DNA from: a virus
Reading direction: 5' to 3' (one strand)
Length of the DNA: 41,675 bases
IMG/VR virus record: IMGVR_UViG_3300025087_000160
Positions 6,143 to 39,389 of this stretch are shown in pieces. How positions within the stretch are numbered: position 1 is the first letter of the stretch; every line of letters begins with the position of its first letter. The notes beneath the pieces were generated by a model, which was not told the origin of the DNA, searched no databases, and saw only the letters and a program-made list of their open reading frames with translations. Made by a program: the position numbers and the translations under genes.

Positions 6143-6151
6143 TGCTATAAT
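6143..6151 (+). promoter_or_regulatory. Extended -10 promoter TGcTATAAT, 8 nt before the groES ATG
   Basis: TGCTATAAT-agattaag-ATG with no SD in between. Confidence 0.55.
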
Positions 6152-6159
6152 AGATTAAG

Positions 6160-6447
6160 ATGAAAATACATCAATTCAAACCAGCCGAAGGATATTGTAT
6201 AGTAGAACCTCTAGACAAGACTTCAAAAGAAGGAATGCAAGTTTATTTAGATGAATTTCCTCAATTAGCCAAGATAATTTCCATTGGATCGGACACTTAC
6301 AATTCTTATACCGATAGGACAATGAATGCTCCTTGTAAAGTTGACGATATAATAATCCATAGTGCCGGAGGATTCGAGACTTTAAAGTTTGAAGGTAAGG
6401 AATACCGGGTAATACATTTTACAAAAATATTGGCTATTAAGAAATGA
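6160..6447 (+). CDS. groES: Co-chaperonin GroES (Cpn10)
   Basis: 95 aa. Alignable by eye to GroES: I.P...Y.IVEP, a mobile-loop-like DKTSKEGMQV, ..IGS.., VDDIII, KILAI C-terminus. ATGA-coupled to groEL. Confidence 0.8.
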   Translation: MKIHQFKPAEGYCIVEPLDKTSKEGMQVYLDEFPQLAKIISIGSDTYNSYTDRTMNAPCKVDDIIIHSAGGFETLKFEGKEYRVIHFTKILAIKK

Positions 6448-8018
6448 AATATTCGAAATCCATATTTAACGAAAAGGCAAGGAAACTTCTATTAGAAGGT
6501 GCTAGAGAAGTCTATAGGGCTGTCGGTACTACTCTGGGAAGCCGTGGTAGAAACATAGTCACTTACAAGGGATATGGACGTACGCGAGTTTTGCACGATG
6601 GGCATAAAATTGCAGAGGAGATAAATCCTAAGAATCCATTTAAAAGTGCCGGTGCCGAGATAATCAAACAGGCTGAACAGCAACAAGTTTCTGAGGTGGG
6701 TGATGGTACAACCTTAGTGATCGTACTAGCTTACGCAATAGCTTCTGAATCTCTAAAGATAGTTGAATCGGGAATCAATCCTATGTCGCTTCGGGCAGGT
6801 CTTGAAAAAGGCAGGGACTTATTAGTTAAAAGAATAAAAGAGTTATCCATTCCAATTAAAACCAAAGAGCAGAAAATCCAAGTGGCCACTATAAGCTCGG
6901 AGGATGAACAAATGGGTGAACTTATAGGCGAAACCTATGAGAAGGCCGGAGTTGACGCCGTAATCACGGCAGAGGAGATAACAGGCCCTGATACGTTCAT
7001 AGACCACCAGGAGGGCTTGCAGATAGACTCAGGCTATAAGACCGAATACTTCGTAACCAATCCAGACAATATGACTGCATCTGTTAGTAACGCAAATATT
7101 CTGGTAACCGATTACAAGTTGGATGATGCGTTTGAGATTCAGCCCCTATTTATCAAGATGAATGAGGCTAAAGAAAGAAACCTAGTTGTAATAGCCGAGG
7201 ACATAGAAGGCATGGTGCTTGTTAGTCTGATAAACAACAAGGTAACTGGTAAGGCAAATATGCTTGCGATAAAGGCTCCAGGTTTTAACACCAAAAACAT
7301 GTTGCAGGATATAGCGACTGTAGTAGGGGCGAAGTTCATATCAAGTGACGCTAAAATGAAAATTAAGGAAGTGGAACTTAAGGATTTGGGTCATGCTGAT
7401 AAAGTAGTTTCGACTAAAGAGGCAACTACTATTCGGGGAGGCAAGGGGGATTCGGCTAAAATTAAGGAAAGAATAAACTCGATCAAGAATCAATTAAATG
7501 AGGAAGAAAAGGAGTTCGATAAAGAAAAGTTAAGAGAGAGGTTGGCCAAGCTAACTGGGGGGGTTTACGTTCTCAGGGTCGGTGGACATACTGAGGTAGA
7601 AGCAGAAGAGCGTAAGGAGCGTGCAGATGATGCGATTCGTGCAACCAAGGTAGCAATTCAAGAAGGAATAATACCAGGCGGAGAGATAATATTTTTGGAA
7701 GCGATGAAAGTTCTCGAACCTACAAATGAGAGTGAAGATTACGCTTTTAGAATATTAAGGAATGCTCTTTATAAACCATTCAATAAACTGGCAGAAAATG
7801 CTGGTATGAATTCAGGTAAGTTACTAGCTGAACTTGAAAGAAAGAAATTCGGATTTGGAGTTGATGTTATAGATGGAGAAATCAAGGACATGTTAGCTTC
7901 TGGTATTGCCGATCCGGCATTAGTAGCGATCTCAGCTATACAAAACGCCATAAGTACTGCAATAGCGATAACTACGAGCGATGGAATTATTGCAGAGATT
8001 GAGGAGGAGAAAAAATGA
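6444..8018 (+). CDS. groEL: Chaperonin GroEL (Cpn60, group I)
   Basis: 524 aa. VGDGTTLVIVLA (GroEL: AGDGTTTATVLA). ERLAKLTGGVYVLRVGGHTEVEAEERKERADDAIRATKVAIQEGIIPGG closely follows the GroEL consensus. No GGM tail; ends EIEEEKK. Confidence 0.92.
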   Translation: MKYSKSIFNEKARKLLLEGAREVYRAVGTTLGSRGRNIVTYKGYGRTRVLHDGHKIAEEINPKNPFKSAGAEIIKQAEQQQVSEVGDGTTLVIVLAYAIASESLKIVESGINPMSLRAGLEKGRDLLVKRIKELSIPIKTKEQKIQVATISSEDEQMGELIGETYEKAGVDAVITAEEITGPDTFIDHQEGLQIDSGYKTEYFVTNPDNMTASVSNANILVTDYKLDDAFEIQPLFIKMNEAKERNLVVIAEDIEGMVLVSLINNKVTGKANMLAIKAPGFNTKNMLQDIATVVGAKFISSDAKMKIKEVELKDLGHADKVVSTKEATTIRGGKGDSAKIKERINSIKNQLNEEEKEFDKEKLRERLAKLTGGVYVLRVGGHTEVEAEERKERADDAIRATKVAIQEGIIPGGEIIFLEAMKVLEPTNESEDYAFRILRNALYKPFNKLAENAGMNSGKLLAELERKKFGFGVDVIDGEIKDMLASGIADPALVAISAIQNAISTAIAITTSDGIIAEIEEEKK

Positions 8019-8218
8019 AAAATATAAAACTTAAAATGTTAGATATTACTTTAGTGCCATTAGAGAATGTTTTATTTGTTTGGTTGGCTCCCTTATGTGA
8101 AGCTAACAATATTGAAAAACTAATTATCACTGAAGAACAATCTCGCTATATATTTAAAAGTGGTGAGGAAAGATGGACACATTATCGTGGTTGTTTGTTA
8201 AAAATTAAAAATGATTAA
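8015..8218 (+). CDS. Hypothetical protein (67 aa)
   Basis: ATGA-coupled to the groEL stop. Confidence 0.55.
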   Translation: MKNIKLKMLDITLVPLENVLFVWLAPLCEANNIEKLIITEEQSRYIFKSGEERWTHYRGCLLKIKND

Positions 8219-8516
8219 AAGCGACTTAAATGTTTTGAGAAATACTCGGCTACATTCACTTTTAGTTTATATTTTATCGGCTATGTTAACTAAAGATATT
8301 AAAGAATTAGATACTTTTGATAATATGCTACCAGTTATAAAAAAAGATTTAGAAAAACTTCCAGCATTGATTTGGCCTGAAAGTGAGATTATTGGAGGAT
8401 TAACTAGACAATCATATAGAATATTTAAAAAGGGTTATACCAAAGGGACTCTGAAAATTAAAGATATTGCTAGATTTAATCATGAAATGTCCGAACTGCA
8501 AAAAAAACAAAGCTGA
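8211..8516 (+). CDS. Hypothetical protein (101 aa)
   Basis: Overlapping start, co-oriented. Confidence 0.55.
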   Translation: MIKSDLNVLRNTRLHSLLVYILSAMLTKDIKELDTFDNMLPVIKKDLEKLPALIWPESEIIGGLTRQSYRIFKKGYTKGTLKIKDIARFNHEMSELQKKQS

Positions 8517-8534
8517 GATTGAGGAGGAAAAGAA

Positions 8535-8855
8535 ATGAGTATGCGAGCTACATTTACAACAGAATTTATTTATGATGGTAGCGAGAATTTTAATGTAAGA
8601 GCTAAAAAAATGGCAACGACTCTTGAAACAAAATGGAATGTTAGGAATGGAGGTATGATCGGCCAAATATCGGGAATAACAAGAGGATTGGATTTGGCGG
8701 AAGAAGATATAAGACGATGGTTATTAGAAATGTGTTATGAACTAGAGAAAATAACCATTATGCCATTTAAAATAATATGGTTATTGGAAGGTGGGGACTT
8801 GATATGCAAAGAAATAAAACCAAATGTCCAAATTGTCTCAAAAGAAAAGCAATAA
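8535..8855 (+). CDS. Hypothetical protein (106 aa)
   Basis: Strong SD. GAGATTGAGGAGGA (8515..8528) is the same 14-mer as at the groEL 3' end (7995..8008). Confidence 0.6.
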   Translation: MSMRATFTTEFIYDGSENFNVRAKKMATTLETKWNVRNGGMIGQISGITRGLDLAEEDIRRWLLEMCYELEKITIMPFKIIWLLEGGDLICKEIKPNVQIVSKEKQ

Positions 8856-9172
8856 TAGATGAAGTTTTAGGAGTAACTTTCTGTAAAGTTTGCAGACAAG
8901 AAAGAGATAAACCGCATTATGAAAGAGAATGGACTAGCGAAAACATTAAGGAAAGCCGGAGAGAATTCAAAAAAGATATTATTGCCCCTTTTAGAGGCGG
9001 TGTTTTCAGCGATGAATACTATCAGGAATACGGCACTTCGGGTGTTAAAGTCACTGAAGAGCAGATAAAAAATAAACGCAAAGTTTGGAAGGATTTGAAA
9101 GGAAGCTGGCAATTGGATAAAAGCAAAGGAGGGAGAAACAAGGAATGGAAAAAGGAAAACATAAAAAAGTAA
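8804..9172 (+). CDS. Hypothetical zinc-ribbon protein (122 aa)
   Basis: CPNC...CKVC. Start moved to the internal ATG at 8804 to limit overlap; the track start is 8777. Confidence 0.5.
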   Translation: MQRNKTKCPNCLKRKAIIDEVLGVTFCKVCRQERDKPHYEREWTSENIKESRREFKKDIIAPFRGGVFSDEYYQEYGTSGVKVTEEQIKNKRKVWKDLKGSWQLDKSKGGRNKEWKKENIKK

Positions 9173-10034: not shown

Positions 10035-11059
10035 GCATACTAGATAAACTGCAACCGAACCCCAAGAACCCACGCCTTATCAAAAAAAATGAGTTTGAAC
10101 GCTTAAAGAAAAAGATCAAAGAGTTTCCAGAGATGCTCGAAAAAAGGCCGATCATATACGATGAAAATAATATTGTATTGGGTGGCAATCAAAGGCTGAG
10201 AGTGCTACAAGAGCTGACGAGAGATGGATTTGTAATAAAGGATGAATACTTTAAAAGCGCCGAAGGATGGACAGAAGAGCAAAAACGTAAATTCATTATA
10301 TTGGATAATATTTCAGACGGTGAATGGGACGCTGAAATGCTGGGCAATGAATGGAGCGATTTACCTTTAGATGAATGGGGATTAGTTGGTAAGTGGAATC
10401 AAGAGATAGAAGAGTTTAGAGGTGATCCTATAACTGATATTAAGAATATAAAAATACTCAATTTATATGCAGGGATTGGTGGTAATCGTAAATTATGGGG
10501 AGATTTGAAAATAACTGCTATCGAATATAATCAAGATATTGCGAATATCTATAAGGATTATTTCCCTGAAGATGAATTAATAGTAACTGATGCTCATAAA
10601 TATTTAGAAAAGAACTTTGATAGGTTTGATTTTATTTGGTCAAGCCCACCTTGTCCGACACATAGCTTATTGAGAAAAGGATTATCTATAGCAGCAGGAG
10701 CTAAGCCTAAATACCCAGATATGAAGTTATATGAGGAGATATTATTTTTACAAGGTTATTTTAAAGGTAAGTGGGTAGTAGAGAATGTTAGAAGCTGGTA
10801 TGACCCACTTATAATTCCACAAGAAAGAGGGAGACATTATTACTGGACTAATTTTGATATTCCTGAGTCAGATATTTTCAATGTTAAAGAGGTTGGCTCT
10901 CCTGAAGAACCTAATTATAGTGAATCTAGTAATAAGTATGGATTCAATTTAGATAAGTATAAAATATCCCCTAAGTATCCAAAGGACCAAATATTAAGAA
11001 ATATGGTTCATCCAGAAGCGGGTAAATATATATTAGAATATGCTTATGATAAAAGATAA
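10031..11059 (+). CDS. ParB/Srx-like N-terminal domain fused to a DNA cytosine-5 methyltransferase core
   Basis: N-terminus: NPKNPR...GGNQRL (ParB-like). C-terminus: LNLYAGIGG (motif I), AIEYN..IYKDYFP (II), SSPPCPTHS (IV, PC dipeptide), VVENV (VI), QERGRHYYWTNF (VIII), LRNMVHPEAGKYI (X-like). Confidence 0.75.
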   Translation: MSILDKLQPNPKNPRLIKKNEFERLKKKIKEFPEMLEKRPIIYDENNIVLGGNQRLRVLQELTRDGFVIKDEYFKSAEGWTEEQKRKFIILDNISDGEWDAEMLGNEWSDLPLDEWGLVGKWNQEIEEFRGDPITDIKNIKILNLYAGIGGNRKLWGDLKITAIEYNQDIANIYKDYFPEDELIVTDAHKYLEKNFDRFDFIWSSPPCPTHSLLRKGLSIAAGAKPKYPDMKLYEEILFLQGYFKGKWVVENVRSWYDPLIIPQERGRHYYWTNFDIPESDIFNVKEVGSPEEPNYSESSNKYGFNLDKYKISPKYPKDQILRNMVHPEAGKYILEYAYDKR

Positions 11060-11432
11060 TATCGCTGATAAACAACTAGATAACAGTAAGAGAGTTCGAG
11101 GGAGACCTTTTCCAAAAGGAGTATCTGGTAATCCTAAAGGAAGACCCCCTAATGAAAGCACACTTCGTTATTGGTTGATTCAATATTTAGAAGCAAAAGA
11201 GCACGGCCACGATAAAAACAGGATGCAAGAGTTAGCTGAAAAGATAGCTCTTGAGGCGTTTAAAGGAGATAAACTTTTATTGAAAGAAGTATTTGACAGA
11301 GTTGATGGCAAGGCCCCTGAAACAATCAGACACGAAGGCGAGATAGATACCGGCATAAAAGAACTATCTGAAACTTTATTGGGTATAATAAGGCATGGGC
11401 AAGATAACCCAAGGCCAGATAAAAGCGATTAA
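11040..11432 (+). CDS. Putative terminase small subunit
   Basis: Directly upstream of and overlapping terL. Has the GRPFPKGVSGNPKGRPP motif common in small proteins preceding large terminases. Confidence 0.45.
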   Translation: MLMIKDNIADKQLDNSKRVRGRPFPKGVSGNPKGRPPNESTLRYWLIQYLEAKEHGHDKNRMQELAEKIALEAFKGDKLLLKEVFDRVDGKAPETIRHEGEIDTGIKELSETLLGIIRHGQDNPRPDKSD

Positions 11433-12765
11433 AGAATTAGGTAGGACATTCTTCAAGAACTCCAAACAGCAACCTTTTGAATTTACCGACGGACAATGTG
11501 AGATGTTTTGTTCCGTGATTAACCCCGACCTTAAATGGGTATGGTTGTCAGCACCTACAAGGTATGGCAAAAGTGATACCTTAGCTTTAGCGATACTCAC
11601 CCTCGCATTTATGTACCATTTAAAGGTTCCCATTGTTGCAGGAAGCGAAGAGAAGGCGAGGAAGATCATGGAGTACGTACTTCAGCACATTTCAGATCAT
11701 CCCAAGATTTATGATGGACTTTTAAACATAGAATTTATTAAAAAGGCCGAGAGAGTGAAGATTCAAATGAGTAAGCAAGGCCTGAGATGGTCAACTGGCG
11801 GATGGATTTACATAACCTCGGTTGACGCACGGACGGTAAGCAGAGAAGGTGAGGGTGTAGTTGGTGAGGGTGGAGATGTAGTTGTTTTAGAGGAGGCGGG
11901 TCTTATACGTCAGCAGGAACAGTTCTCCAAGGTAGTCAGGATGGTCGAGGGTGATTGGGGTAAACTGATTATGAGCGGTAATTGTATAGAGAAAAGCGTA
12001 TTTGAAACCGCCTACAAAGATCCTCTTTATTACAAAGTTAGAATAAGTTTAGAACAGGCTATCAAAGAAGGTAGAATAAATGAGGAGCGGTTAAAAGAGC
12101 AAAAGCCCCAGACTACTTCTAAGGACTGGAAAAGATATTATTTGGTAGAATTTCCTTCAGCTTCAGAATATGCCTATTTCAAACCAAGAAAATATGAATA
12201 TCTACCCCTAGACTTGGTTTATGTTGGTGCGGTTGATTTGTCTTTGGGCGAGGCGATAAAAGGAAGCAAAGTGGGTATGGTTGTACTGGGAGTTGACGAG
12301 AAGGGACAAGTATACGAGGTTGAGAGTTTTGAGGAGCAGGTCGTACCGGATGAAACCATTAGAAGGATTTTAAACTTGCCTTATAAGTTCGATAGGTTCG
12401 GCATCGAGGCAATACAATTCCAAAAGTATTTCTTAAAAGTAATCGAGGACAAAAGCAAGGCGCAAGGCAAGTATATACCGTTTATAGGATTGGAGCAGAA
12501 AAGAAAAAAAGAGGAGAGAATCGAGGGCATGGAGCCTCTGATAAATACCGGCCAGATATTATTTAAAGGAGGAAATGAGTTGTGGAATGAAATGCAGGAA
12601 TATCCTGATGTAGAGTATTTAGATATTCTGGATGCACTTGAGATGGCTTGGAGACTGGCCAAGCAAGTGGGAGTAGAACTTGGAAGTATTTCGAGACCAA
12701 AAGCTAAACCTTACATTCCGGTAAGTGCCGCCCATTTGATAGATTTGTCAAAATGGACGAAATAG
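11395..12765 (+). CDS. terL: Terminase large subunit
   Basis: Walker A-like APTRYGKS, Walker B-like VVVLEEAG, RNaseH-like nuclease half (VGAVDLSLG ... ILDALEMA). 456 aa. Confidence 0.85.
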   Translation: MGKITQGQIKAIKELGRTFFKNSKQQPFEFTDGQCEMFCSVINPDLKWVWLSAPTRYGKSDTLALAILTLAFMYHLKVPIVAGSEEKARKIMEYVLQHISDHPKIYDGLLNIEFIKKAERVKIQMSKQGLRWSTGGWIYITSVDARTVSREGEGVVGEGGDVVVLEEAGLIRQQEQFSKVVRMVEGDWGKLIMSGNCIEKSVFETAYKDPLYYKVRISLEQAIKEGRINEERLKEQKPQTTSKDWKRYYLVEFPSASEYAYFKPRKYEYLPLDLVYVGAVDLSLGEAIKGSKVGMVVLGVDEKGQVYEVESFEEQVVPDETIRRILNLPYKFDRFGIEAIQFQKYFLKVIEDKSKAQGKYIPFIGLEQKRKKEERIEGMEPLINTGQILFKGGNELWNEMQEYPDVEYLDILDALEMAWRLAKQVGVELGSISRPKAKPYIPVSAAHLIDLSKWTK

Positions 12766-12771
12766 TATAAT
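12766..12771 (+). promoter_or_regulatory. -10 hexamer TATAAT, 5 nt before the ATG at 12777
   Basis: TATAAT-gagta-ATG, no SD. Confidence 0.45.
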
Positions 12772-12776
12772 GAGTA

Positions 12777-13052
12777 ATGAGCAAGTCAGCTCCAAGCATT
12801 AGGAAACCTACGACAGTATGGCTAGAAGGTAGCTCTGAGAAAAAGATGTGGTTTTGTCCAAATTGTAGAATTCCTTTAATAGAGTACGAAGGTAATGTAA
12901 TTCAGATAGTACCAGGCGGATCTCCTTATTCTCCAAGCACGTCACTCAAATGCAAGGGTTCGGTCCAGAAGCGTGACGGCACTTGGGAGGAGTGCGGAGC
13001 GTTCTATACTTTCTTAGGGGTGGTGTTCACCAAGAATCCACAAATGACTTAG
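12777..13052 (+). CDS. Hypothetical zinc-ribbon protein (91 aa)
   Basis: CPNC...C..(x)..C. Confidence 0.55.
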   Translation: MSKSAPSIRKPTTVWLEGSSEKKMWFCPNCRIPLIEYEGNVIQIVPGGSPYSPSTSLKCKGSVQKRDGTWEECGAFYTFLGVVFTKNPQMT

Positions 13053-13056
13053 TAGT

Positions 13057-13064
13057 TGTATAAT
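13057..13064 (+). promoter_or_regulatory. TG + TATAAT, 5 nt before the portal ATG
   Basis: TTGTATAAT-aaatt-ATG, no SD. Confidence 0.5.
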
Positions 13065-13069
13065 AAATT

Positions 13070-15040
13070 ATGGAAGATCAAGAAAAAGGACAGGAATCGG
13101 CCCCGATATTAAACCTCGACTTAGATGACAAAAAGCTAGCTTTCTTCATCGAGCAGTACGAGAAAAAGTATGATGGGTTCGATAAAAACAAAAAACTTAC
13201 AGAGAGAAGAAAAACCAATACAAAGTATTTATTCGGCAAACAACTTGATGATGTCGAGCTTAAAGACTACCAGAAGAAGTACGTAGACAACGTAATCAAG
13301 GAAGGCGAAGATACTTTAAGGACTCTGGTGCTTTCAAGACTTCCAGACATCATAGTTAATCCTGGCCCCGATTCGCAAGTTTCACGGGAAGTGTCAGACC
13401 TGATAAGTGAGGCCGTAAATAAGACTCTTCAAAGCGATGAACTTAAGCAATTTCTTACTTTGGCTTTCAGGCGGCACTCACTGGATTTAACGGGAGTAAT
13501 CAAGTATTACTGGAATTCCCAAAAAGGCAAACTAGGCGATATCGAATGGGAAGTCATACCCGCCAAGTACATAAAGATAGACATTTCCGCAACCAAAAAC
13601 AATGAAAGGTATATGAAGTTGATTATCCATGAAGTTGAGAGATGTTTGTACGACTGGATAATTTTATTCCCAGAGAAAGAGGATCAGCTAAAAGACTTTG
13701 CAAGGCAGAAGAATTGGCAAGAAGCAAAGGACGAGGATGGTATAGCGTTTGATTTAAAAGTTCAAGAGATTTGGTTTGACTGGAAAGAGAAAGCAGATGG
13801 CTTCGACCCAGAGAATCCAGAGTTTGAATCTATGAGCGGTGTTTTGTGGAAGGCCGGTGAGGGCGAGAAAAGCATCCTTGATAAAAGAATGAATCCTAAC
13901 TGGGACTGGGAAGGCGAGGACAAGCCATTTTTCAACGAAAAGCCCGTATCGGATGAGATGTTGCCCCAGATGGCGATGATGGGCATGCAGGTACCAGGCG
14001 TTGAAATGAAGAAGGTCTATAGGAACTACTTCGGCAAGCCCAGAAAACCATTTATATTCATGGGTTATGAGCAATATGGCGAGATGGCTTTTGATGAAAT
14101 CTCAAGAATAGAGGAAAACAAATTACTTCAGGACAACTACGATATTAGGGGAATGCAAATAACTACAATGATTGACGAGGCTAGGGGTAAGCACGTATTT
14201 TCGTCTATGTGCGGGCTCAAAAAAGAAACGGTTGAGGAGATGGATTTAAGTGACCCTGACCAGGATATATTTGTGGATGGAGACTTAAGAATGGTTCACG
14301 CATTCATCTCAAAAGAACAACCAAGTAGTGCAATGTTCGGGGATCTTGCAAGAACAAAAGAAAGAGTTAAGGAAAAACTGCACATAAGCGGTGCCGCAAG
14401 TGGGGTGTTGACAAGCGATGTCGCAACTACCACGCAAATTCAAAGAGAGTCGAGTTTCACGATTGCCGATGACTTCTCGGATCTAGCTATAAACAAAGTA
14501 GCAACCGAGATGGCCGAGGCGCTCTTGCACATGATGAAGCTGAGATATACTCCCCAGCACTTCCAACTATTGATAGGTTCTCAAGGCGCCGAAGTCCAAC
14601 AAAGGTTGACCGCTGACTTGATAGAGGATGGGATGGAGGTAGGGATCAAGGCTTCGGGGACTGATAAACTTAAAAGAGAAAGACAGGCAAAAGAAGAAGC
14701 AAGTTTGGGATTGATAGACCCTATAAATTACTTCATCGACACTGGTAGAAGCGATGCAGAGAATAGAGCCGAGATGCTTTATATGTTCCAGACGAATCCC
14801 GATATGTATATTAAGAAATATTCTCAAAAAATGGATTTGCAGGGTGTGGCAAATCAGGTAATAGGCATGAATCAGCAAAACTTAATGAGGTTTGGCAATC
14901 CTCAAGGGCCCTACCAACCTCAGCAACCAATGCAACCATCCCCACAGAACCCCCAAGCGATTGGGGAAACACCGCAAGGCTCACCAAGAAGTCTTATAGG
15001 TAGAGCGACTGGTGTTATTAGTAGACTGTTTAATAGATAA
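13070..15040 (+). CDS. Putative portal protein
   Basis: 656 aa, first large ORF after terL. Has a Q/P-rich C-terminal tail. Called from position and size only. Confidence 0.6.
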   Translation: MEDQEKGQESAPILNLDLDDKKLAFFIEQYEKKYDGFDKNKKLTERRKTNTKYLFGKQLDDVELKDYQKKYVDNVIKEGEDTLRTLVLSRLPDIIVNPGPDSQVSREVSDLISEAVNKTLQSDELKQFLTLAFRRHSLDLTGVIKYYWNSQKGKLGDIEWEVIPAKYIKIDISATKNNERYMKLIIHEVERCLYDWIILFPEKEDQLKDFARQKNWQEAKDEDGIAFDLKVQEIWFDWKEKADGFDPENPEFESMSGVLWKAGEGEKSILDKRMNPNWDWEGEDKPFFNEKPVSDEMLPQMAMMGMQVPGVEMKKVYRNYFGKPRKPFIFMGYEQYGEMAFDEISRIEENKLLQDNYDIRGMQITTMIDEARGKHVFSSMCGLKKETVEEMDLSDPDQDIFVDGDLRMVHAFISKEQPSSAMFGDLARTKERVKEKLHISGAASGVLTSDVATTTQIQRESSFTIADDFSDLAINKVATEMAEALLHMMKLRYTPQHFQLLIGSQGAEVQQRLTADLIEDGMEVGIKASGTDKLKRERQAKEEASLGLIDPINYFIDTGRSDAENRAEMLYMFQTNPDMYIKKYSQKMDLQGVANQVIGMNQQNLMRFGNPQGPYQPQQPMQPSPQNPQAIGETPQGSPRSLIGRATGVISRLFNR

Positions 15041-15042
15041 AA

Positions 15043-15687
15043 ATGGATGATAAACTTAGAGCAATCATCAGAGCGACTGGAGAAATACCATCTTTTCTTG
15101 GTGATGTAGCACAGTCAATTGCTTCTTTAATTAAACCAAGGGAAACCAAGTTATTAAGTCCTATTCCCGAAGCAAAACCCACACCGACTCCTGACCCCTT
15201 TATTGAAAAGGGTTGGATAAAGACTGGTGAGAATAAATATATATCCCTGGCGGCTCTTCAAGCAAGGAGAGAGGTAGAAGGAATACAAAACAAACCAGTA
15301 CCAATTTCCAAGGTTACTTCCAATAATCCTTTTGAGAAAGTTATTAATAACATTTTCGGAGAAAGGGCCAATGAAGCAAAAAGAGTATTAAGTTATAAAG
15401 ATGAAAAAGGCGAAATTCATGGTGAAAATACATCTTTTCAAACTGGTCCCGAAGTTGACATTCCCAATGCCGATGGCTCTATTGACAGGGGATTATTTAG
15501 AATCAACTCCTATACTTTTGCCGATTTTATGAATAGGAAAAAGGAACTTCTTAATAGAAACGGCATTTATTTATATGAGGATATGTATGATCCTGAGAAG
15601 AATACCAAAATGGCAAAGATTATTTTTGACGAGCAAGGATGGGATGCTTGGTACGCTAGTCCTCCTGACTTGAAGGAGAAGCAATAA
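15043..15687 (+). CDS. Virion-module lysozyme-like / lytic transglycosylase protein
   Basis: IDRGLFRINSYTF and GWDAWYA parallel VDYGVAQINS / SPWSAF in ORF 1761..2348 and the lysozyme DYGIFQINS motif. Starts 2 nt after the portal stop. Confidence 0.55.
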   Translation: MDDKLRAIIRATGEIPSFLGDVAQSIASLIKPRETKLLSPIPEAKPTPTPDPFIEKGWIKTGENKYISLAALQARREVEGIQNKPVPISKVTSNNPFEKVINNIFGERANEAKRVLSYKDEKGEIHGENTSFQTGPEVDIPNADGSIDRGLFRINSYTFADFMNRKKELLNRNGIYLYEDMYDPEKNTKMAKIIFDEQGWDAWYASPPDLKEKQ

Positions 15688-15739
15688 TATTATGATATTT
15701 TTGCTGTGCTCTTTCGTTAAGACTAGAGATTGATGGAAG

Positions 15740-15748
15740 TGCTATACT
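15740..15748 (+). promoter_or_regulatory. Extended -10 TGcTATACT, 5 nt before the ATG at 15754
   Basis: TGCTATACT-aaatt-ATG, no SD. Confidence 0.5.
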
Positions 15749-15753
15749 AAATT

Positions 15754-15936
15754 ATGCCCTTACCAGTAAGCACAGACAAAGGAAAAGTGATGGATGTTAT
15801 TAAAGAGCATCATCCGTCATGGCCTAAAGATAAAAAGATGGCAGTAATGTTGAATCAGGCACGCAGAGCAGGTGCTAAAATTCCAAGGAATCCACATGAC
15901 GAAGCAATGAAAGCAGTTAAAAGAGCAACTGCATGA
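15754..15936 (+). CDS. Hypothetical protein (60 aa)
   Basis: Track ORF. Its TGA stop forms the TG of the next extended -10. Confidence 0.55.
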   Translation: MPLPVSTDKGKVMDVIKEHHPSWPKDKKMAVMLNQARRAGAKIPRNPHDEAMKAVKRATA

Positions 15937-15942
15937 TATAAT
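15934..15942 (+). promoter_or_regulatory. Extended -10 TGaTATAAT, 6 nt before the ATG at 15949
   Basis: TGATATAAT-aaaagt-ATG. The TGA is the stop of the upstream ORF. Confidence 0.55.
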
Positions 15943-15948
15943 AAAAGT

Positions 15949-16671
15949 ATGGTAGACAAACCAACTCAAAAAAATGAGGAAGGCCAAGAGATACAGCAAG
16001 AAACTCCGACTTCGGAAGTTCAACCTCAAGGCACGCAACCAACTCCGGCTCCATCGCAAACGCAACTTTCAGATGACCAAGTAGCTTCATTAAAAGATTC
16101 TATTACTAAAGACGTATCAGGCGTAGTTAGTCAGGAAGTAAGTAGGTCAGTTATTCAAAAAATAGGCGAGGCGTTGGGTCTGACCAAGAAACAGGAGGAA
16201 ACACTGCCGACTGATGCAGATGCCCTCAAAAAGATAGTTAATGAGCAATTAGAGCAAAGATTTACCAAGTTGCAGGAGGAAAGCGAAAAAGAGGAGCAAC
16301 AAACCACGACTCAAAGGCAAGAAAGAATCAATGGAATAGTACAAAGTTGGTACTCTCAATACAATCAACTGGCAAGATTGGGTAAGGTTCCTCAAATGAA
16401 AGAGGCCAAGGATGGCGATGCTGGCTATGATGCGAGAAAGAAAATAATCTTGGCGATAGGCAAGATGATTGAACAAAACAGATCGCAAGGAGTCGAATAC
16501 ACTCCGTCTATAGCTGATGTATTAGTAGCTTATCCGCAAATATTACAAGGGCCGCCTGGCGCAGATTTGCCCATAAGCGGGAATACCCAAGTAAGGGAGT
16601 CGGGAGAAAGTTTTAAACATTCTGATTTAAAGAAATCTTGGGAAGAGATTGCGGCGGGCGAATTTAGTTGA
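15949..16671 (+). CDS. Putative scaffolding protein
   Basis: 240 aa, acidic and Q/E/K-rich with predicted coiled-coil character. Lies between portal and capsid. Confidence 0.45.
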   Translation: MVDKPTQKNEEGQEIQQETPTSEVQPQGTQPTPAPSQTQLSDDQVASLKDSITKDVSGVVSQEVSRSVIQKIGEALGLTKKQEETLPTDADALKKIVNEQLEQRFTKLQEESEKEEQQTTTQRQERINGIVQSWYSQYNQLARLGKVPQMKEAKDGDAGYDARKKIILAIGKMIEQNRSQGVEYTPSIADVLVAYPQILQGPPGADLPISGNTQVRESGESFKHSDLKKSWEEIAAGEFS

Positions 16672-16672
16672 T

Positions 16673-16701
16673 TTGCTAATATTTGACAAATAGTTTACAA
16701 T
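16673..16701 (+). promoter_or_regulatory. Sigma70-type promoter TTGCTA-17-TACAAT
   Basis: -35 at 16673..16678, 17-nt spacer, -10 at 16696..16701. Confidence 0.5.
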
Positions 16702-16720
16702 AATACTAACGACAAAATAG

Positions 16721-16746
16721 TCGGCTCAACAGGAGCCGATTTTTTG
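16721..16746 (+). terminator. Intrinsic-terminator-like hairpin
   Basis: TCGGCTC-aacag-GAGCCGA followed by TTTTTTG. Confidence 0.7.
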
Positions 16747-16759
16747 TTTAATAACAATT

Positions 16760-17869
16760 ATGGCAGGATTTTCAGTAACCCCAGACGGAATCAACCCTTC
16801 TAATAGGGTAGAAGGTAAAACACTGCGAGCACTTCATGGCAAAGTTGTAGATACTATCTTAGAAGCTCCAACTTATCTCTCCCGCTTGATGGGTAAAGCT
16901 AAACCATTCAGGGGTGTAGTAATGGATTGGACTATCAAGTATCAGCAATCATCTCAATTTGAGTGGTTCACTGGCTTAGAGAATCTGAACTCTTCAGCAG
17001 AAGATAATGAGATCACCCTTTCATTCGCACATACCGCAGGAACCCAACCCAAGGTTTCTATCATGTTAGAGAGTTTTGCTAATGCCGGAGCAGAAGGAGT
17101 TATTCCCTTGGATGCATATAAGCATGAAGAGGCGGCACTTGAGGTGGTTGATGCAGTTGCCGAGGCGGCTTACAGTACGGGGGCAGGAGATACGCCAAAC
17201 GGCCTTCAGGCAATTGTAGACAACGGAACAAACGCTGCAACAATCGGAGGCCAAACTCGATCAAGCTATGACGTTTTGGATGCGACCTATACGAGCTGGG
17301 GGACGATGACCTTGGCCAAACTTGCAACTTTGGATGACGCTTGTGCAAAGGGCGGAGGGGCAGCATCGGTTCCTAACATCAACTTAACCACTTTTGCGGA
17401 TTGGAGTCTTTACGAGGAACTCTTAGACCCACAAGTAAGAGCAAATTATAACTCAGGTGGTTGGCCAAGAATGAGCGTAAGGGGAGAAGGATCAGCCGAT
17501 GCCAAACTGGGCGGCGCAGCAGGATTCCTTTCACTTCACCACAGGGGGATGCCGGCAATCAAGGACAAAAAGGCAACTCCTGGTGTTTGGTACAAACTTA
17601 ACGAAAGTTCATTTGGATGGTTCGGCAGGACAGTAGTACCAACTGAATACGCAAAACTTGGACTTGAAAAGATAAATCTTGGTTCACTTGAGGGAATGGA
17701 ATCACTCGCAAAAGAGGAGATGCCATCCGCCTTCAACGGGTGGTTCTATCAGCCTCCTTTGATGATGCCCGACCAAGCAGGAACAATCGCAAGATTCTAT
17801 GTAATCGGACAAATCGCAACTTGGAGGCCAAACCTTAACGGTCAAGGTCATTCAATAACAGGAGTCTAA
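16760..17869 (+). CDS. Putative major capsid protein
   Basis: 369 aa. Follows the scaffold-like gene, bracketed by promoter/hairpin upstream and a terminator at 18729. Positional call. Confidence 0.6.
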   Translation: MAGFSVTPDGINPSNRVEGKTLRALHGKVVDTILEAPTYLSRLMGKAKPFRGVVMDWTIKYQQSSQFEWFTGLENLNSSAEDNEITLSFAHTAGTQPKVSIMLESFANAGAEGVIPLDAYKHEEAALEVVDAVAEAAYSTGAGDTPNGLQAIVDNGTNAATIGGQTRSSYDVLDATYTSWGTMTLAKLATLDDACAKGGGAASVPNINLTTFADWSLYEELLDPQVRANYNSGGWPRMSVRGEGSADAKLGGAAGFLSLHHRGMPAIKDKKATPGVWYKLNESSFGWFGRTVVPTEYAKLGLEKINLGSLEGMESLAKEEMPSAFNGWFYQPPLMMPDQAGTIARFYVIGQIATWRPNLNGQGHSITGV

Positions 17870-17870
17870 A

Positions 17871-18602: not shown

Positions 18603-18728
18603 TGTAAACTAAACCAACTCATGTTTGCCAAAACTCTTTTAACGTAAGAAATGGCAAAAATTGACAGATAACGCTTTGCTGCTCAATTGAGTGTGCATTG
18701 CCTTAATAGGTAGAAGCGTAAAGAGATT

Positions 18729-18754
18729 AACCCCTTTTTACGAGGGGTTTTTTA
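18729..18754 (+). terminator. Rho-independent terminator
   Basis: AACCCCT-ttttacg-AGGGGTT followed by a T run. Confidence 0.75.
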
Positions 18755-18760
18755 ATAAAT

Positions 18761-26699: not shown

Positions 26700-26700
26700 G

Positions 26701-26709
26701 TGTTATAAT
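26701..26709 (+). promoter_or_regulatory. Extended -10 TGtTATAAT, 7 nt before the ATG at 26717
   Basis: GTGTTATAAT-ttaagta-ATG, no SD. Confidence 0.55.
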
Positions 26710-26716
26710 TTAAGTA

Positions 26717-29569: not shown

Positions 29570-29578
29570 TGTTATAAT
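29570..29578 (+). promoter_or_regulatory. Extended -10 TGtTATAAT without an adjacent ATG
   Basis: GTGTTATAAT-aaagtaa-GGA. Same consensus as the other promoters, but followed by a hairpin instead of a start codon. Confidence 0.5.
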
Positions 29579-29594
29579 AAAGTAAGGAGAAATT

Positions 29595-29626
29595 ACTCCA
29601 GCTAAACGGCTGGAGTTTTTATTTTT
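29595..29626 (+). terminator. Intrinsic-terminator-like hairpin
   Basis: ACTCCAGC-taaacg-GCTGGAGT followed by TTTTATTTTT. Ends 3 nt before the ATG at 29629. Confidence 0.7.
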
Positions 29627-29628
29627 AA

Positions 29629-30438
29629 ATGGCACTAACTGAAGAAATATTAAGAAAAAAGTTTGGGTATAACGATCCTAATTTTATAAATTCAATTTTG
29701 AGCGGTCGCGAGCCCGAACTTGCGGCACGTCTCGAAAGAGAATCACAGCCCGCGCCAGTGCCAACACCCGCTCCAATCCAACCCGTTGCTGATTTCCAGG
29801 CTGAACAGAGAGCAAGAATGGGCGCATTCACAACCAAACTCGGCGAAGTGCCGGAACAACTAACGGCAGTCCGAACCGCACTTAAACTCCCCGAAGCTTA
29901 CGAGACATACGGACAGGCAGGCAAGACGGCAAGAGATATCGGTTATACGATGGAGGATATGCCTCAGGCAGTTCAACAGGCATTATCAGGTCGAGGTGTA
30001 TCAGCCGGACAGATTACGGGAAGGTCTGCGGCAGAAATCAGGGGGCTGCAACCCGCGCTCACTGCGGCCAGCAGGGGACTTGAAAGCGCAGGTTCAACGC
30101 TTCAAGGTCTTTTAAGTCAATACCAAACGGAAAAAGCTGATATATTTACTCCGCTCCAGATAGAAGGGACTTTAATTTCAGCGCAATCAGCGAATGAATA
30201 TGATCTTATGAAAACACAAATAACTTCGGCTTTGAATAGAGAAATTACACAAATGCAGGAGACGGGCGCAACAGATAGGGCAAATATTGCTAGAGCCGTA
30301 GAAATGGCAAAATTAGAGGATAAGTATGGCGGTATCAGCTTTCAAGATTTGGGAACTCAACTAGGAATATTTAAGGGAACTGAATTAGTCGGAACACAAC
30401 CGATAACTAAATTCGGTTCAACAGATACGGGTTGGTAA
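29629..30438 (+). CDS. Hypothetical A/Q/E-rich protein (269 aa), possibly an internal virion/ejection protein
   Basis: Composition and position only. Confidence 0.45.
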   Translation: MALTEEILRKKFGYNDPNFINSILSGREPELAARLERESQPAPVPTPAPIQPVADFQAEQRARMGAFTTKLGEVPEQLTAVRTALKLPEAYETYGQAGKTARDIGYTMEDMPQAVQQALSGRGVSAGQITGRSAAEIRGLQPALTAASRGLESAGSTLQGLLSQYQTEKADIFTPLQIEGTLISAQSANEYDLMKTQITSALNREITQMQETGATDRANIARAVEMAKLEDKYGGISFQDLGTQLGIFKGTELVGTQPITKFGSTDTGW

Positions 30439-32112: not shown

Positions 32113-32370
32113 TCATATTTTCTCAACTCCTCCCAATAAATCTTCTTTGGCAGCTTTTTCCATTTCCTCCAAGCAACTCTTGTATCCCCAGTCCTCATCT
32201 GTTTTTTTAGCACTCATTTCCTGGCAGAATTTGACGACATCAAATTTAGTGACTCTTTCTATTGGTTGCTCAACTTTTAAAAGTTTACTTAGTTCAAACA
32301 AGAAGAATCCACCGAAGGCGATAAAAAGAAGAGTTTGGATAATTACTATTCCTACAAGTAATTTATTCAT
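32113..32370 (-). CDS. Opposite-strand small membrane-anchored protein (85 aa)
   Basis: Internal ATG at 32370 gives MNKLLVGIVIIQTLLFIAFGGFFLF.. It sits 7 nt downstream of TTGACA-17-TAGAAT on the minus strand. Confidence 0.6.
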   Translation of the reverse strand: MNKLLVGIVIIQTLLFIAFGGFFLFELSKLLKVEQPIERVTKFDVVKFCQEMSAKKTDEDWGYKSCLEEMEKAAKEDLLGGVEKI

Positions 32371-32377
32371 TGTGTGA

Positions 32378-32406
32378 ATTCTAATCCCTTTAGAAGGCAT
32401 TGTCAA
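32378..32406 (-). promoter_or_regulatory. Consensus promoter TTGACA-17-TAGAAT (minus strand), 7 nt before the ATG
   Basis: Complement of 32401..32406 is TTGACA. Complement of 32378..32383 is TAGAAT. Confidence 0.7.
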
Positions 32407-32428
32407 ATACATTAGATACTGATATAAT
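32400..32428 (+). promoter_or_regulatory. Promoter TTGTCA-17-(TGa)TATAAT, 6 nt before the ATG at 32435
   Basis: -35 at 32400..32405 overlaps the minus-strand -35 by 5 bp. -10 at 32423..32428. Confidence 0.7.
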
Positions 32429-32434
32429 TAGTTA

Positions 32435-33133
32435 ATGCCAAAAGTTATAAAAACTTGTTCAAATTGTGGTAAGCAGTTCGGACACTTTACTTCAAATGGT
32501 CCTGGGAAATTTTGCTCCAAAAAATGTTATTGGAAAAACTTAAAAGGTAAAGACCCTGAGCATTTACATACGCCAGAGATTCAAAAAAAGGCAGGATTAT
32601 CTCAAAGGGGTAAATTTGTTTCTGAAGAAACCAGACTAAAACAAAGTGAAGCACAAAAGAAAAGATTCAAAAAAGAAAATCCTTGGAATAAAGGTTTAAC
32701 TGCTAAGGATAATCCGATTATAGGGGTAACTGCAGCTAAAGCCAGGAAGGCAAAAGAAGGAATGTCGGCGTGGAATAAGGGGTTGACCAAAGAAACCGAT
32801 AAAAGAGTGGCCAAATATTCAAAGAGTTTAAAGGGAATGAAAAAATGGTGGCAATCTGATGAAAAACACCATGCTTGGAAAGGTGATAATGTTGGTTACA
32901 TTTCACTTCATACATGGATAGCAAGAAAACTGGGAAGACCAAACATTTGTCAACTTTGTGGAAAATCAGGTTTCAAAAGGAAAGAAATAGATTGGGCAAA
33001 TAAAAATCATAAATACAAAAGAAACTTAAATGATTGGTTAAGATTGTGTAAATCTTGTCACTTCAGGTATGACAAGAGAGGTTTTAGAAAAGGAAATGTA
33101 ATATGGAAAAAAAGTTTATCTCAAGCCTGCTAA
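32435..33133 (+). CDS. HNH-like homing-endonuclease family protein with WNKG repeats (232 aa)
   Basis: N-terminal CSNCG..FCSKKC. PWNKGLTAKD and AWNKGLTKE repeats. C-terminal CQLCG...EIDWANK...LCKSCH, paralogous to ORF 33724. AT-rich relative to its neighbours. Confidence 0.65.
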   Translation: MPKVIKTCSNCGKQFGHFTSNGPGKFCSKKCYWKNLKGKDPEHLHTPEIQKKAGLSQRGKFVSEETRLKQSEAQKKRFKKENPWNKGLTAKDNPIIGVTAAKARKAKEGMSAWNKGLTKETDKRVAKYSKSLKGMKKWWQSDEKHHAWKGDNVGYISLHTWIARKLGRPNICQLCGKSGFKRKEIDWANKNHKYKRNLNDWLRLCKSCHFRYDKRGFRKGNVIWKKSLSQAC

Positions 33134-33451
33134 GCTTTCGGCGATTTTCCGTTCGCTCTCAGCTACTCCTTTTAATGCTGAAATTGAAATTTGAGCTTCC
33201 CAACTTCTTGCTGGAGGTGTTCCTGGAGTTGTCGGTGCACCGAGAGCTTGGGTTGCAACATTTTGCTCGACGTTTCCTATCTGTGGGTTGGTCGTGGGAA
33301 CTGCAGAAGGCGCGACCTGAATACCAGGTGCTGCTGCACTCATACTTTCAAGTTGTGGTATATCTATTCCTCTACGTTTAGTTGCTTCTTTGAGTGCTTG
33401 AATTCCCCCTAGGCCTATTCCAAATGATCCCGTATTTTGATTAGGTTGCAT
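33116..33451 (-). CDS. Opposite-strand hypothetical protein (111 aa), low-complexity G/A/P/T-rich
   Basis: Internal ATG at 33451 lies 7 nt downstream of TGtTACAAT on the minus strand. Converges on and overlaps the 3' end of ORF 32435..33133. Confidence 0.45.
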   Translation of the reverse strand: MQPNQNTGSFGIGLGGIQALKEATKRRGIDIPQLESMSAAAPGIQVAPSAVPTTNPQIGNVEQNVATQALGAPTTPGTPPARSWEAQISISALKGVAESERKIAESLAGLR

Positions 33452-33458
33452 AATATAA

Positions 33459-33467
33459 ATTGTAACA
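33459..33467 (-). promoter_or_regulatory. Extended -10 TGtTACAAT (minus strand), 7 nt before the ATG at 33451
   Basis: Complement of 33459..33467 reads TGTTACAAT. Confidence 0.5.
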
Positions 33468-33474
33468 TACCTAT

Positions 33475-33482
33475 TGTATAAT
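33475..33482 (+). promoter_or_regulatory. TG + TATAAT, 6 nt before the ATG at 33489
   Basis: TTGTATAAT-aaatta-ATG. Confidence 0.5.
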
Positions 33483-33488
33483 AAATTA

Positions 33489-33707
33489 ATGGTTTCAACT
33501 AATTTTAGTAAGGTTTCTGTAAATTCGACTGGTTTTAGCAAACCTACTCAGGTTTCTACTGGATTTGGCATCAAGGATACAAATACTGACGTTTTATTAC
33601 TTCAGAATGGAACGGATAGCTTACTTTTGCAAAACGGAACGGATGAACTTTTATTAGGCGGAAATGGTGAATTAGAAAGTACGAATTATTCGCGAATTTT
33701 CGCTTAA
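33489..33707 (+). CDS. Hypothetical protein (72 aa) with LLLQNGTD repeats
   Basis: The track start at 33474 is a TTG inside the promoter, so I used the first ATG. Contains VLLLQNGTDSLLLQNGTDELLL. Confidence 0.5.
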   Translation: MVSTNFSKVSVNSTGFSKPTQVSTGFGIKDTNTDVLLLQNGTDSLLLQNGTDELLLGGNGELESTNYSRIFA

Positions 33708-38290: not shown

Positions 38291-38444
38291 AAAAGGATCT
38301 TTTAAGCGGGTAAGAAGATGGTACAAGGGACTTCATCCAGAAAAGGGAATTTTGCATCTTCGGGGCATATCAGGTAAAGAAACTATTGCTATTGAAGAAA
38401 GAATTCGGCCTCAAGGGACTTATGTAGTTGAAAAAGAAAAATAG
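38223..38444 (+). CDS. Hypothetical basic protein (73 aa)
   Basis: GAGGTGG SD 6 nt upstream of the ATG. Confidence 0.5.
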   Translation: MERKDHLSEIERPEIAGEKTLYEKGSFKRVRRWYKGLHPEKGILHLRGISGKETIAIEERIRPQGTYVVEKEK

Positions 38445-38498
38445 CTACTGACATGCTCCCGCTTATGGTGCAGATGCCAAAAATAGATTGAAAAATTA

Positions 38499-38562
38499 AA
38501 AACAAGCGGAGCTATTCTGTTGTACACTATCCTGTCTGAATAATGAAGACCCCGCTTGTTTT
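38499..38562 (+). other. 11-bp inverted repeat AAAACAAGCGG / CCGCTTGTTTT (42-nt spacer)
   Basis: Arms at 38499..38509 and 38552..38562, in the 273-bp non-coding region. Confidence 0.8.
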
Positions 38563-38579
38563 AACTGCCTTCGAGCAAA

Positions 38580-38650
38580 CTTTGTAACTGAAATACTACA
38601 AAGCATATAGCAACTCCAGCGTTCTTTAACTGTAGCATATAAGTTAAAGA
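38580..38650 (+). other. Two related hairpins (CTTTGTA/TACAAAG and TCTTTAAC/GTTAAAGA)
   Basis: Arms at 38580..38586/38597..38603 and 38623..38630/38643..38650. Both left arms are followed by ACTG. Confidence 0.75.
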
Positions 38651-38676
38651 TAGTTCAACTAGAAATATTGTCGTTC

Positions 38677-38705
38677 TTGACAAGGGGTAAAATAAGTTAT
38701 AAATT
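38677..38705 (+). promoter_or_regulatory. Candidate promoter for the replication module
   Basis: TTGACA at 38677..38682. -10 candidates are TATAAA (15-nt spacer) or TAAATT (17-nt spacer). ATG at 38718. Confidence 0.45.
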
Positions 38706-38717
38706 AGATATATAAAT

Positions 38718-38957
38718 ATGAAAGATGAACTTCAGTTAGAGACCTACTACCTCAAAGCAAAAGCCCTTATACAAAGAGTAAAAGATATTTCTTTTGGTAT
38801 TTCTCGTCTTGAACAGAAATTCCCCGACAGAACTCTTAATCCTGAAAGAAAAGCATGGATGCTTGATACTTATTTGGCTTACAAATTTGACCTCGAAGAC
38901 GTCTTCAAAGACTTAGAAAAATTATACAAAGAATATAAAGATGGCGATACCAAGTAA
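38718..38957 (+). CDS. Hypothetical protein (79 aa)
   Basis: First ORF after the non-coding region. Confidence 0.55.
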   Translation: MKDELQLETYYLKAKALIQRVKDISFGISRLEQKFPDRTLNPERKAWMLDTYLAYKFDLEDVFKDLEKLYKEYKDGDTK

Positions 38958-39141
38958 TTTTTATATCAATCACAATAAATTTCAGGAATATTCTGATAAG
39001 GCGATAGACTGGTTTTTGCGAAGTTGTGAATTTAAACACGGTTCTGACGAGTGGCTGATTTGTCGATTGAAAAGAAAGATATTTATGAAAAAAGCACTGC
39101 AACAGTTGCAGTTAGCTAGAAAGTGTCTTGATATAGACTGA
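38941..39141 (+). CDS. Hypothetical protein (66 aa)
   Basis: Overlapping, co-oriented ORF. Confidence 0.5.
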   Translation: MAIPSNFYINHNKFQEYSDKAIDWFLRSCEFKHGSDEWLICRLKRKIFMKKALQQLQLARKCLDID

Positions 39142-39156
39142 TACGAAAAGATGACG

Positions 39157-39183
39157 TTGACTAAAGTAAAGTTTCTTTATAAT
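39157..39183 (+). promoter_or_regulatory. Promoter TTGACT-15-TATAAT, 8 nt before the ATG at 39192
   Basis: -35 at 39157..39162, -10 at 39178..39183. Confidence 0.45.
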
Positions 39184-39191
39184 ATCTAAAT

Positions 39192-39389
39192 ATGGTAGCC
39201 TTCAGAGTAATAGATAAACGAGGTATTGAGGCAATTTTCTTTACTAGAGAAGAATTTCAGTTACTCCAACAATGGTTAAAAGAAAATATCAGTTGTATAA
39301 CCTGTTTTCAAAGAAGTATTGAAAAAGGGTGGACAGAAAGAGAAATTGAAATGGTAAATAAACTGTTCAGTAAAAATTTCAAGATATGA
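39192..39389 (+). CDS. Hypothetical protein (65 aa)
   Basis: Track ORF. ATGA-coupled to the initiator gene. Confidence 0.55.
   Translation: MVAFRVIDKRGIEAIFFTREEFQLLQQWLKENISCITCFQRSIEKGWTEREIEMVNKLFSKNFKI

Follow-up and report, generated by a model that had tools for sequence, protein, structure and literature searches.

Extended −10 elements placed directly before start codons point to leaderless gene starts in a family of GroEL-encoding phages

Leaderless first genes of bacterial transcription units are marked by a Pribnow box 6-8 nucleotides (nt) from the start codon, and the internal genes carry Shine-Dalgarno (SD) sites (PMC6028130, PMC3160421). Among phages, the classic leaderless message is that of lambda cI transcribed from PRM (PMC3160421). 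In the Thermus phages YS40 and Lalka27a most transcripts are leaderless (bioRxiv 10.64898/2026.04.20.719267), and the start codon's A or G lies at their 5′ end (bioRxiv 10.64898/2026.04.20.719267; PMC7403470). The present analysis concerns the virus record IMGVR_UViG_3300025087_000160, one strand of 41,675 nt with a GC content of 39% (hereafter the window, i.e., the whole stretch of DNA analysed). In the window, a near-consensus and usually extended −10 element ends 5-8 nt before the ATG of many genes. The feature is real, statistically strong and conserved. It most probably represents promoters of the host primary-sigma (sigma-A-type) RNA polymerase, which would give leaderless or nearly leaderless mRNAs. 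A preliminary description of the same DNA read this core mechanism correctly, and its further proposals of late-gene specificity and translational timing are unsupported.

The arrangement resembles that of the group C, or TA-led, genomes (Zheng et al. 2011), e.g., those of Deinococcus, Thermus and Actinobacteria, in which a −10 box precedes the first genes and the internal genes have SD sites. The share of genes involved is also comparable, being about 20-40% in those genomes (PMC6028130, PMC3160421). Unlike group C, the genome is that of a phage, and the element is a full TATAAT with a TG extension, whereas high-GC genomes have a loose TANNNT. Moreover, the density of the promoters is unusual, as many units consist of one gene and are not separated by a terminator, and the putative host lineage, the Candidate Phyla Radiation (CPR), does not figure in the list of phyla that these two papers give (PMC6028130, PMC3160421).

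Apparent host-polymerase extended −10 promoters without a −35 element are a likeness to the Thermus phages phiYS40, Lalka27a and P23-45. Unlike these phages, the sites here are not limited to one temporal class, and no gp39-like factor is recognisable by Pfam or PHROG matches, although small proteins of this kind are easily missed and a structure search was not made. The distinct TAGGGT box of the late promoters of Lalka27a is not seen here. In lambda, cI is the leaderless arm of a divergent promoter pair, and the same geometry is found at starts 32370/32435 and 33451/33489 of the window; unlike lambda, each pair here has two leaderless-type arms, and no repressor domain is recognisable in their gene products. 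No DNA-level relationship to the Thermus phages or to any other deposited phage was detected (megablast, 12 kb of the window). The window is probably an unrelated new case of a known leaderless style, in a different phage family that is probably associated with CPR.

The background for the enrichment of the element was set by 300 dinucleotide-preserving shuffles. TATAAT with an ATG 5-8 nt downstream is found 15 times on the plus strand, which carries nearly all genes, and never on the minus strand (shuffles 1.53 ± 1.29, maximum 7). The form TGNTATAAT is found 11 times on the plus strand and is absent from the minus strand (shuffles 1.19), and TGNTATAAT-N5-8-ATG is found nine times and none, respectively (shuffles 0.11). 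Bare TATAAT is not enriched, with 26 copies on the plus and 17 on the minus strand vs 20.7 in the shuffles. However, an ATG is located 5-8 nt downstream of 15 of the 26 plus-strand copies and of none of the 17 on the minus strand. The non-random part is the placement together with the TG extension, the raw TATAAT count being ordinary. A −10 hexamer with at least five of six matches at a gap of 5-8 nt precedes 19 of the 82 gene starts, and seven control offset bins contain 0-3 of 82. When no motif was preset, the top hexamer within 22 nt upstream of the starts was again TATAAT (16 vs 0.85 expected, p = 1.6e-15). The enrichment, judged only by eye in the preliminary description, lies far above the shuffles and on the plus strand only. 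Chance arising from AT-richness is ruled out by the shuffles and the strand asymmetry.

The individual sites are the following, the gap being the distance in nt between the −10 box and the ATG and protein lengths being given in amino acids (aa):

6143-6162, plus strand: TGCTATAAT, gap 8; ATG 6160, groES, followed by groEL at 6444-8018
11029-11034, plus strand: TATATT without TG, gap 5; ATG 11040, DUF5681 protein
11384-11389, plus strand: TATAAT, gap 5; ATG 11395, large terminase
12745-12779, plus strand: TTGTCA, 15 nt, TATAAT, gap 5; ATG 12777, 91-aa gene ahead of portal
13057-13072, plus strand: TGTATAAT, gap 5; ATG 13070, portal
15740-15756, plus strand: TGCTATACT, gap 5; ATG 15754, 60 aa
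15934-15951, plus strand: TGATATAAT, gap 6; ATG 15949, 240 aa, weak scaffold-like match
19948-19964, plus strand: TGTTATAAT, gap 5; ATG 19962, 74 aa
20179-20196, plus strand: TGGTATAAT, gap 6; ATG 20194, 171 aa
20707-20724, plus strand: TGATATAAT, gap 6; ATG 20722, 88 aa
22372-22388, plus strand: TGATATAAT, gap 5; ATG 22386, 521 aa, orthologous site in the related contig L001
25723-25739, plus strand: TGATATAAT, gap 5; ATG 25737, 320 aa, SU10 adaptor and tail-fibre-like matches
26701-26719, plus strand: TGTTATAAT, gap 7; ATG 26717, 617 aa
32400-32437, plus strand: full promoter TTGTCA, 17 nt, TGATATAAT, gap 6; ATG 32435, 232 aa; 11/12 matches, TG present
32368-32406, minus strand: TTGACA (32406-32401), 17 nt, TAGAAT (32383-32378), gap 7; ATG 32370; 11/12 matches
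33449-33467, minus strand: TGTTACAAT, gap 7; ATG 33451, 111 aa
33475-33491, plus strand: TGTATAAT, gap 6; ATG 33489, 72 aa
33712-33726, plus strand: TATAAT, gap 6; ATG 33724, 147 aa, weak HNH-like match
39157-39194, plus strand: TTGACT with either TATAAT (15-nt spacer, gap 8) or TAATAT (17-nt spacer, gap 6); ATG 39192, first gene of the unit holding the RepO-like (39386) and DnaB-like (40131) genes

All 17 elements of the preliminary description are present with the coordinates, sequences and gaps given there; the sites at 11029 (DUF5681) and 11384 (terminase) were absent from its list and belong to the set. The TGA stop of the upstream gene doubles as the TG of the element at 15934, 20707 and 25723, in agreement with the ends of the open reading frames (ORFs) 15754-15936, 20194-20709 and 24991-25725, respectively, and the remaining promoter region there falls in the coding sequence of the upstream gene. 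The start at 32370 is an in-frame internal ATG of ORF 32113-32412, which results in a protein of 85 aa instead of 99 aa. The 521-aa gene 22386-23951, previously labelled as a fibre gene, has no Pfam or PHROG match and the label is unverified.

The promoters of the divergent pair 32370/32435 (32368-32437) overlap in one −35 region, TTGTCAA at 32400-32406, and because of this shared region polymerase binding at the two should be mutually exclusive. In the pair 33451/33489 (33449-33491), two extended −10 boxes stand back to back within a 37-nt intergenic space. A perfect orphan copy of TGATATAAT is located at 22102-22110 inside gene 22043-22369. The ATG overlaps the box and no ORF starts downstream at leaderless distance. 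This copy could have arisen by chance or act as a promoter within the gene.

The strand-specific pattern recurs in seven related contigs (L001-L007), with portal identities from 85 down to 38%. Over this whole range orthologous genes have retained sites while the flanking sequence has diverged, so that the arrangement is shared by related phages, as the preliminary description had proposed to check. Conserved positions are found upstream of the portal gene and of the small gene preceding it, as well as of the scaffold-like gene, the 53-60-aa gene and further genes. For instance, TGnTATAAT-N5-6-ATG is kept before the portal orthologues of L001, L002, L003 and L005, and gTGATAnAaT-N5-7-ATG before the orthologues of the 12777 gene in six phages. 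The orthologues of the 15754 gene (53-58 aa; L001, L002 and L003) bear TGnTATAAT, TACAAT or TATACT. The terminase orthologue of L001 has TAGAAT at a gap of 6 before its ATG, with equal ORF length. The farther relatives L015 and L017 have three and five such plus-strand sites, respectively, within about 22 kb each.

A family logo was built from 61 pooled sites, each lying ahead of the first ATG in an ORF of 45 codons or more, and reads gTGnTATAAT. In the hexamer T1, A2 and T6 are near-invariant; the hexamer columns are partly fixed by the selection rule, which does not apply to the shuffle and hexamer enrichments. TGn is present at 43 of the 61 sites and a G just before it at 34, whereas the −35 region (−40 to −14) has an information content of about zero. 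The gap is most often 6 nt (32 sites), followed by 5 (18), 8 (6) and 7 (5), and the nucleotide preceding the A of the ATG is mostly T (29/61). The association is specific to ATG: an extended box is found at leaderless distance from 15 per 1000 ATG vs 0.35-2.2 per 1000 GTG, TTG and control triplets.

The logo has the look of an extended −10 promoter, as had been suggested. Most sites also lack a −35 element, and full −35/−10 matches are not enriched in the window. A −35 is present at a few sites (32400, 32406 and 39157); in the divergent pair (32400-32428 and 32406-32378) it is a consensus −35 with a spacer of 17 nt. Since the TG extension, like the consensus −35 that is occasionally present, corresponds to contacts of a sigma-70-family holoenzyme, the element would be a promoter and not a ribosome signal. 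TATAAT boxes of this kind also serve genes with long leaders, for example at 29570 in the window and in the capsid-gene promoters of the relatives, which likewise would not be expected of a ribosome signal. With a gap of 6 nt, the A of the ATG falls at the canonical position of the transcription start. Between box and ATG no SD site would fit, and most anti-SD duplex energies are weaker than −4 kcal/mol. The gap distance, the ATG specificity and the weak SD complementarity therefore bear out, at the level of the sequence, the predicted leaderless mRNAs.

In the mechanism proposed, the primary-sigma polymerase of the host would use gTGnTATAAT with no need of a −35 and would start transcription at the first base of the ATG or no more than 1-2 nt away. 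The 5′-terminal AUG of the leaderless mRNA would then stand in for the SD contact, and the genes inside a unit would depend on SD sites or on start/stop overlaps instead. Because the −10 box alone would suffice, such a promoter fits into intergenic gaps of 7-17 nt, even over the TGA stop of the upstream gene. Leaderless starts would thus be the general gene-start style of the phage clade, and probably of its host, and not a regulon of late genes.

Gene-start style was compared with that of cellular loci and distant phages. The nearest cellular GroELs (about 45% identity) belong to CPR (Daviesbacteria, WWE3 and CPR3) and to Chloroflexi, which are tied. Three syntenic Microgenomates-like loci around groEL (L008, L009 and L010; GC 37-41%) have the −10 box at a gap of 5-8 nt at 15 of 63 genes, with 1-6 of 63 in seven control offset bins and few SDs. 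Some such sites (3/17) are found in a CPR3 locus (GC 46%), and a Thermoflexales locus (GC 63%) shows a high-GC version of the pattern. A WWE3 locus (L012; GC 39%) has two clear SDs among its 10 genes and the box at one of 10.

Two distantly related phages of about 39 kb, each with a chaperonin gene, have GGAGG or AAGGAG SDs at many or most genes. In the TM7 phage MG269973 (MG269973.1, L014; Cpn60; GC 52%) the genes are mostly SD-led, with promoters 20-25 nt upstream. The Manatee Spring phage MW202566 (MW202566.1, L018; GroES-GroEL; GC 46%), in which the order GroEL-terminase-portal is as in the window, is SD-led with 1 of 54 genes of the leaderless type. Gene-start style differs between clades of this phage group, the leaderless style being specific to the clade of the window, and it probably tracks the expression machinery of the host. 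The Microgenomates-like loci suggest widespread leaderless expression in a Microgenomates/Daviesbacteria-like CPR lineage. No statement on leaderless expression in CPR was met in a full-text search of one literature library, which is not proof of novelty.

Other approaches to the host were less informative. The capsid protein has no relative in the genome collection that could have pointed to prophages, and the relatives of the M23 peptidase are on phage contigs only and give no taxonomic hint. A portal profile search found three contigs binned into metagenome-assembled genomes, with conflicting taxonomy (Brocadia, Gammaproteobacteria and Patescibacteria). A more specific scenario is tentative and rather doubtful: the host would be a Microgenomates-type CPR (Patescibacteria) bacterium in which leaderless, −10-only initiation is a main mode and serves about a quarter of the genes, and the phage would exploit it by providing many virion genes with promoters of their own, possibly with translational control of late yield.

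Several points weigh against host-sigma promoters with leaderless messages. The leaderless 5′ ends are predicted from the sequence. Since most promoters have no terminators between them, read-through polycistronic RNA must coexist with the short transcripts, and in it these AUGs are internal and SD-less. The gap of 5 nt (18/61) is one nt below the Escherichia coli optimum, and the gap of 8 (6/61) implies a leader of 1-2 nt. At 20194 the site is less clean, as an SD-like GGTGG overlaps the TG and the anti-SD duplex reaches −8.5 kcal/mol. Positions +1 to +40 of motif genes do not fold more weakly than those of other starts. For the host, the tie of the phage GroEL between CPR and Chloroflexi and the disagreement of the bins of its relatives count in the same direction.

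The read-through RNA leads to a different explanation, in which the promoters are real and most of the protein is made from this RNA by termination-reinitiation or 70S scanning, leaderless translation being minor or auxiliary. The stop-to-ATG gaps of 7-17 nt at most virion-module sites, the few terminators between units and the three stops that overlap a promoter would suit it. Reinitiation does not depend on a particular sequence, whereas orthologous sites preserve TGnTATAAT nearly base for base, and the starts at 32435, 32370, 33451, 33489 and 39192 lie behind long gaps or divergent genes and receive no ribosome from upstream. Such an origin of most of the protein is therefore considered unlikely. 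Less probable still is that the motif is not a promoter and acts as a non-SD ribosome-binding or enhancer signal on leadered mRNA, as in group B genomes, or as the target of an unrecognised phage factor. The box does sit at SD distance, and A/U-rich sequences can enhance initiation. In group B, however, nearly all genes would be expected to bear the signal, whereas about 23% do so here and many others have classical, GGAGG-type SDs. Both the TG extension and the −35 of some sites serve as contacts for polymerase, and the box is also found 50-60 nt upstream of leadered genes. This reading is accordingly given very little weight.

The remaining alternative is a late-gene regulon controlled in its timing or yield at the level of translation, through a change during infection to ribosomes competent for leaderless messages, as the preliminary description envisaged, or to such initiation factors. 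The distribution favours it in part, as 13 of the 19 sites fall in the interval from the DUF5681/terminase genes to the tail genes (11029-26719) and the small-gene cluster at 4395-5900 is uniformly SD-led; class-specific promoters also have a precedent in Thermus phages (PMC7403470). Judged by gene content rather than by temporal classes, though, the sites are not restricted to middle or late genes: they also head groES-groEL (6160), the replication unit (39192) and both divergent pairs (32370/32435 and 33451/33489). SD-led genes, which the preliminary description assigned to the early, middle and replication genes, occur inside virion-module operons as well (17871, 18889 with GAGGAGG, 21638 and 24373), and the capsid gene is leadered and differently arranged. 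No translation factor or polymerase-binding protein was recognised in the Pfam/PHROG domain scans. The pattern can be explained with no ribosome shift, since the same layout is seen in cellular CPR loci without infection. For these reasons a regulon of this kind is judged quite improbable, if somewhat less so than a ribosome signal.

Strong anti-SD duplexes (−9 to −16 kcal/mol, GAGGAGG-type) are found at many genes without the motif, and within runs of genes the SD-led and overlapping ones come after motif genes. The split between motif and SD-led genes seems closer to one between the first gene of a unit and its internal genes, as in GeneMarkS-2 group C (PMC6028130). The virion module was described as cut into short promoter-headed units; this holds for the promoters, by which the units themselves are defined, and does not extend to terminators, few of which separate them.

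As a mechanism, this mode of expression is well known from other bacteria and phages. Its recognition here permits gene starts and transcription units to be called from the sequence in a large unannotated family of GroEL-encoding phages of about 40 kb, in which standard SD-based gene callers will misplace starts. Gene-start style may also serve as a host-matching signal, as the close relatives are leaderless, the two distant GroEL phages are SD-led and the Microgenomates-like loci match. If the host assignment is true, a CPR lineage with reduced ribosomes would lean heavily on leaderless translation.

The window is essentially the whole phage genome; its GroEL protein sits on a contig of 41,689 bases. 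The genes recognised, besides those of unassigned function, are:

32-520: NinG-like
692-871: helix-turn-helix protein
1183 and 35313 (starts): HNH endonucleases
6160-6447: GroES, identified by tblastn to the Cpn10 gene of L009
6444-8018: GroEL (PF00118)
10031 (start): C5 methylase
11040 (start): DUF5681 protein, by Pfam match
11395-12765: large terminase
13070-15040: portal
16760-17869: major capsid protein
24991 and 35903 (starts): Laminin_G_3 proteins
36928 (start): M23 peptidase
39386 (start): RepO-like
40131 (start): DnaB-like

Pfam/PHROG scans of about 60 ORFs revealed no phage-encoded RNA polymerase or sigma factor, and no tRNAs or known RNA families were found in the window. Relatives of the portal are many and are located on uncultivated contigs of 36-42 kb, all of which are too small for a prophage in a chromosome.

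Leaderless initiation does not extend to the major capsid gene. Its leader was compared in the window (16673-16762), in L001-L007 and in L015 and L017, and consists in order of a promoter, a hairpin, an A/U-rich stretch and the ATG. The promoter of the window is TTGCTA-17-TACAAT, and several relatives have TTGACA, 18-19 nt and TATAAT; the −35 is TTGACA-like in most relatives and absent in L015. A GC hairpin with a U-tract begins 10-25 nt after the −10, and in the window (16719-16741) its energy is −17.4 kcal/mol (z = −6.6). From the hairpin to the ATG there are 9-40 nt of A/U-rich sequence (about 10-20 in most), mostly without an SD, and the gene starts with ATGGCA (ATGGCT in L004). The stems vary in sequence among the relatives with pairing always kept; this was judged by single-sequence folds, as the RNAalifold consensus was weak with an alignment out of register. 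The leader looks like a promoter-terminator-gene layout, i.e., attenuation or antitermination, and no candidate antiterminator was identified.

Two further places have similar hairpins. The region 29570-29631 has a capsid-like layout, with TGTTATAAT at 29570-29578, a hairpin at 29595-29616 (z = −5.6) and the ATG at 29629. In 18717-18763, a hairpin (18729-18749) that is conserved in L005 stands directly before the ATG at 18761. In both cases the hairpin ends 12-13 nt upstream of the ATG, the 3′ arm contains GGAG or GAGGGG and no SD is exposed.

A cluster of small SD-led genes is located at 3700-5980, with the repeated intergenic element TAACTCTCAAAAATAAATAACTTTTACTACCAAAGAGGGAATATATG and its variants between them. 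The genes at 3940, 4176 and 5762 share an N-terminal coding repeat, with KPKEGKI in all three, and the ORFs called from TTG codons at 3977 and 5805 are probably incorrect calls. A 273-nt non-coding region (38444-38720), which could contain an origin or a control region, precedes the replication genes. It ends with TTGACA-17-TAAATT placed 12 nt before the ATG at 38718, and this promoter would give a very short leader rather than none.

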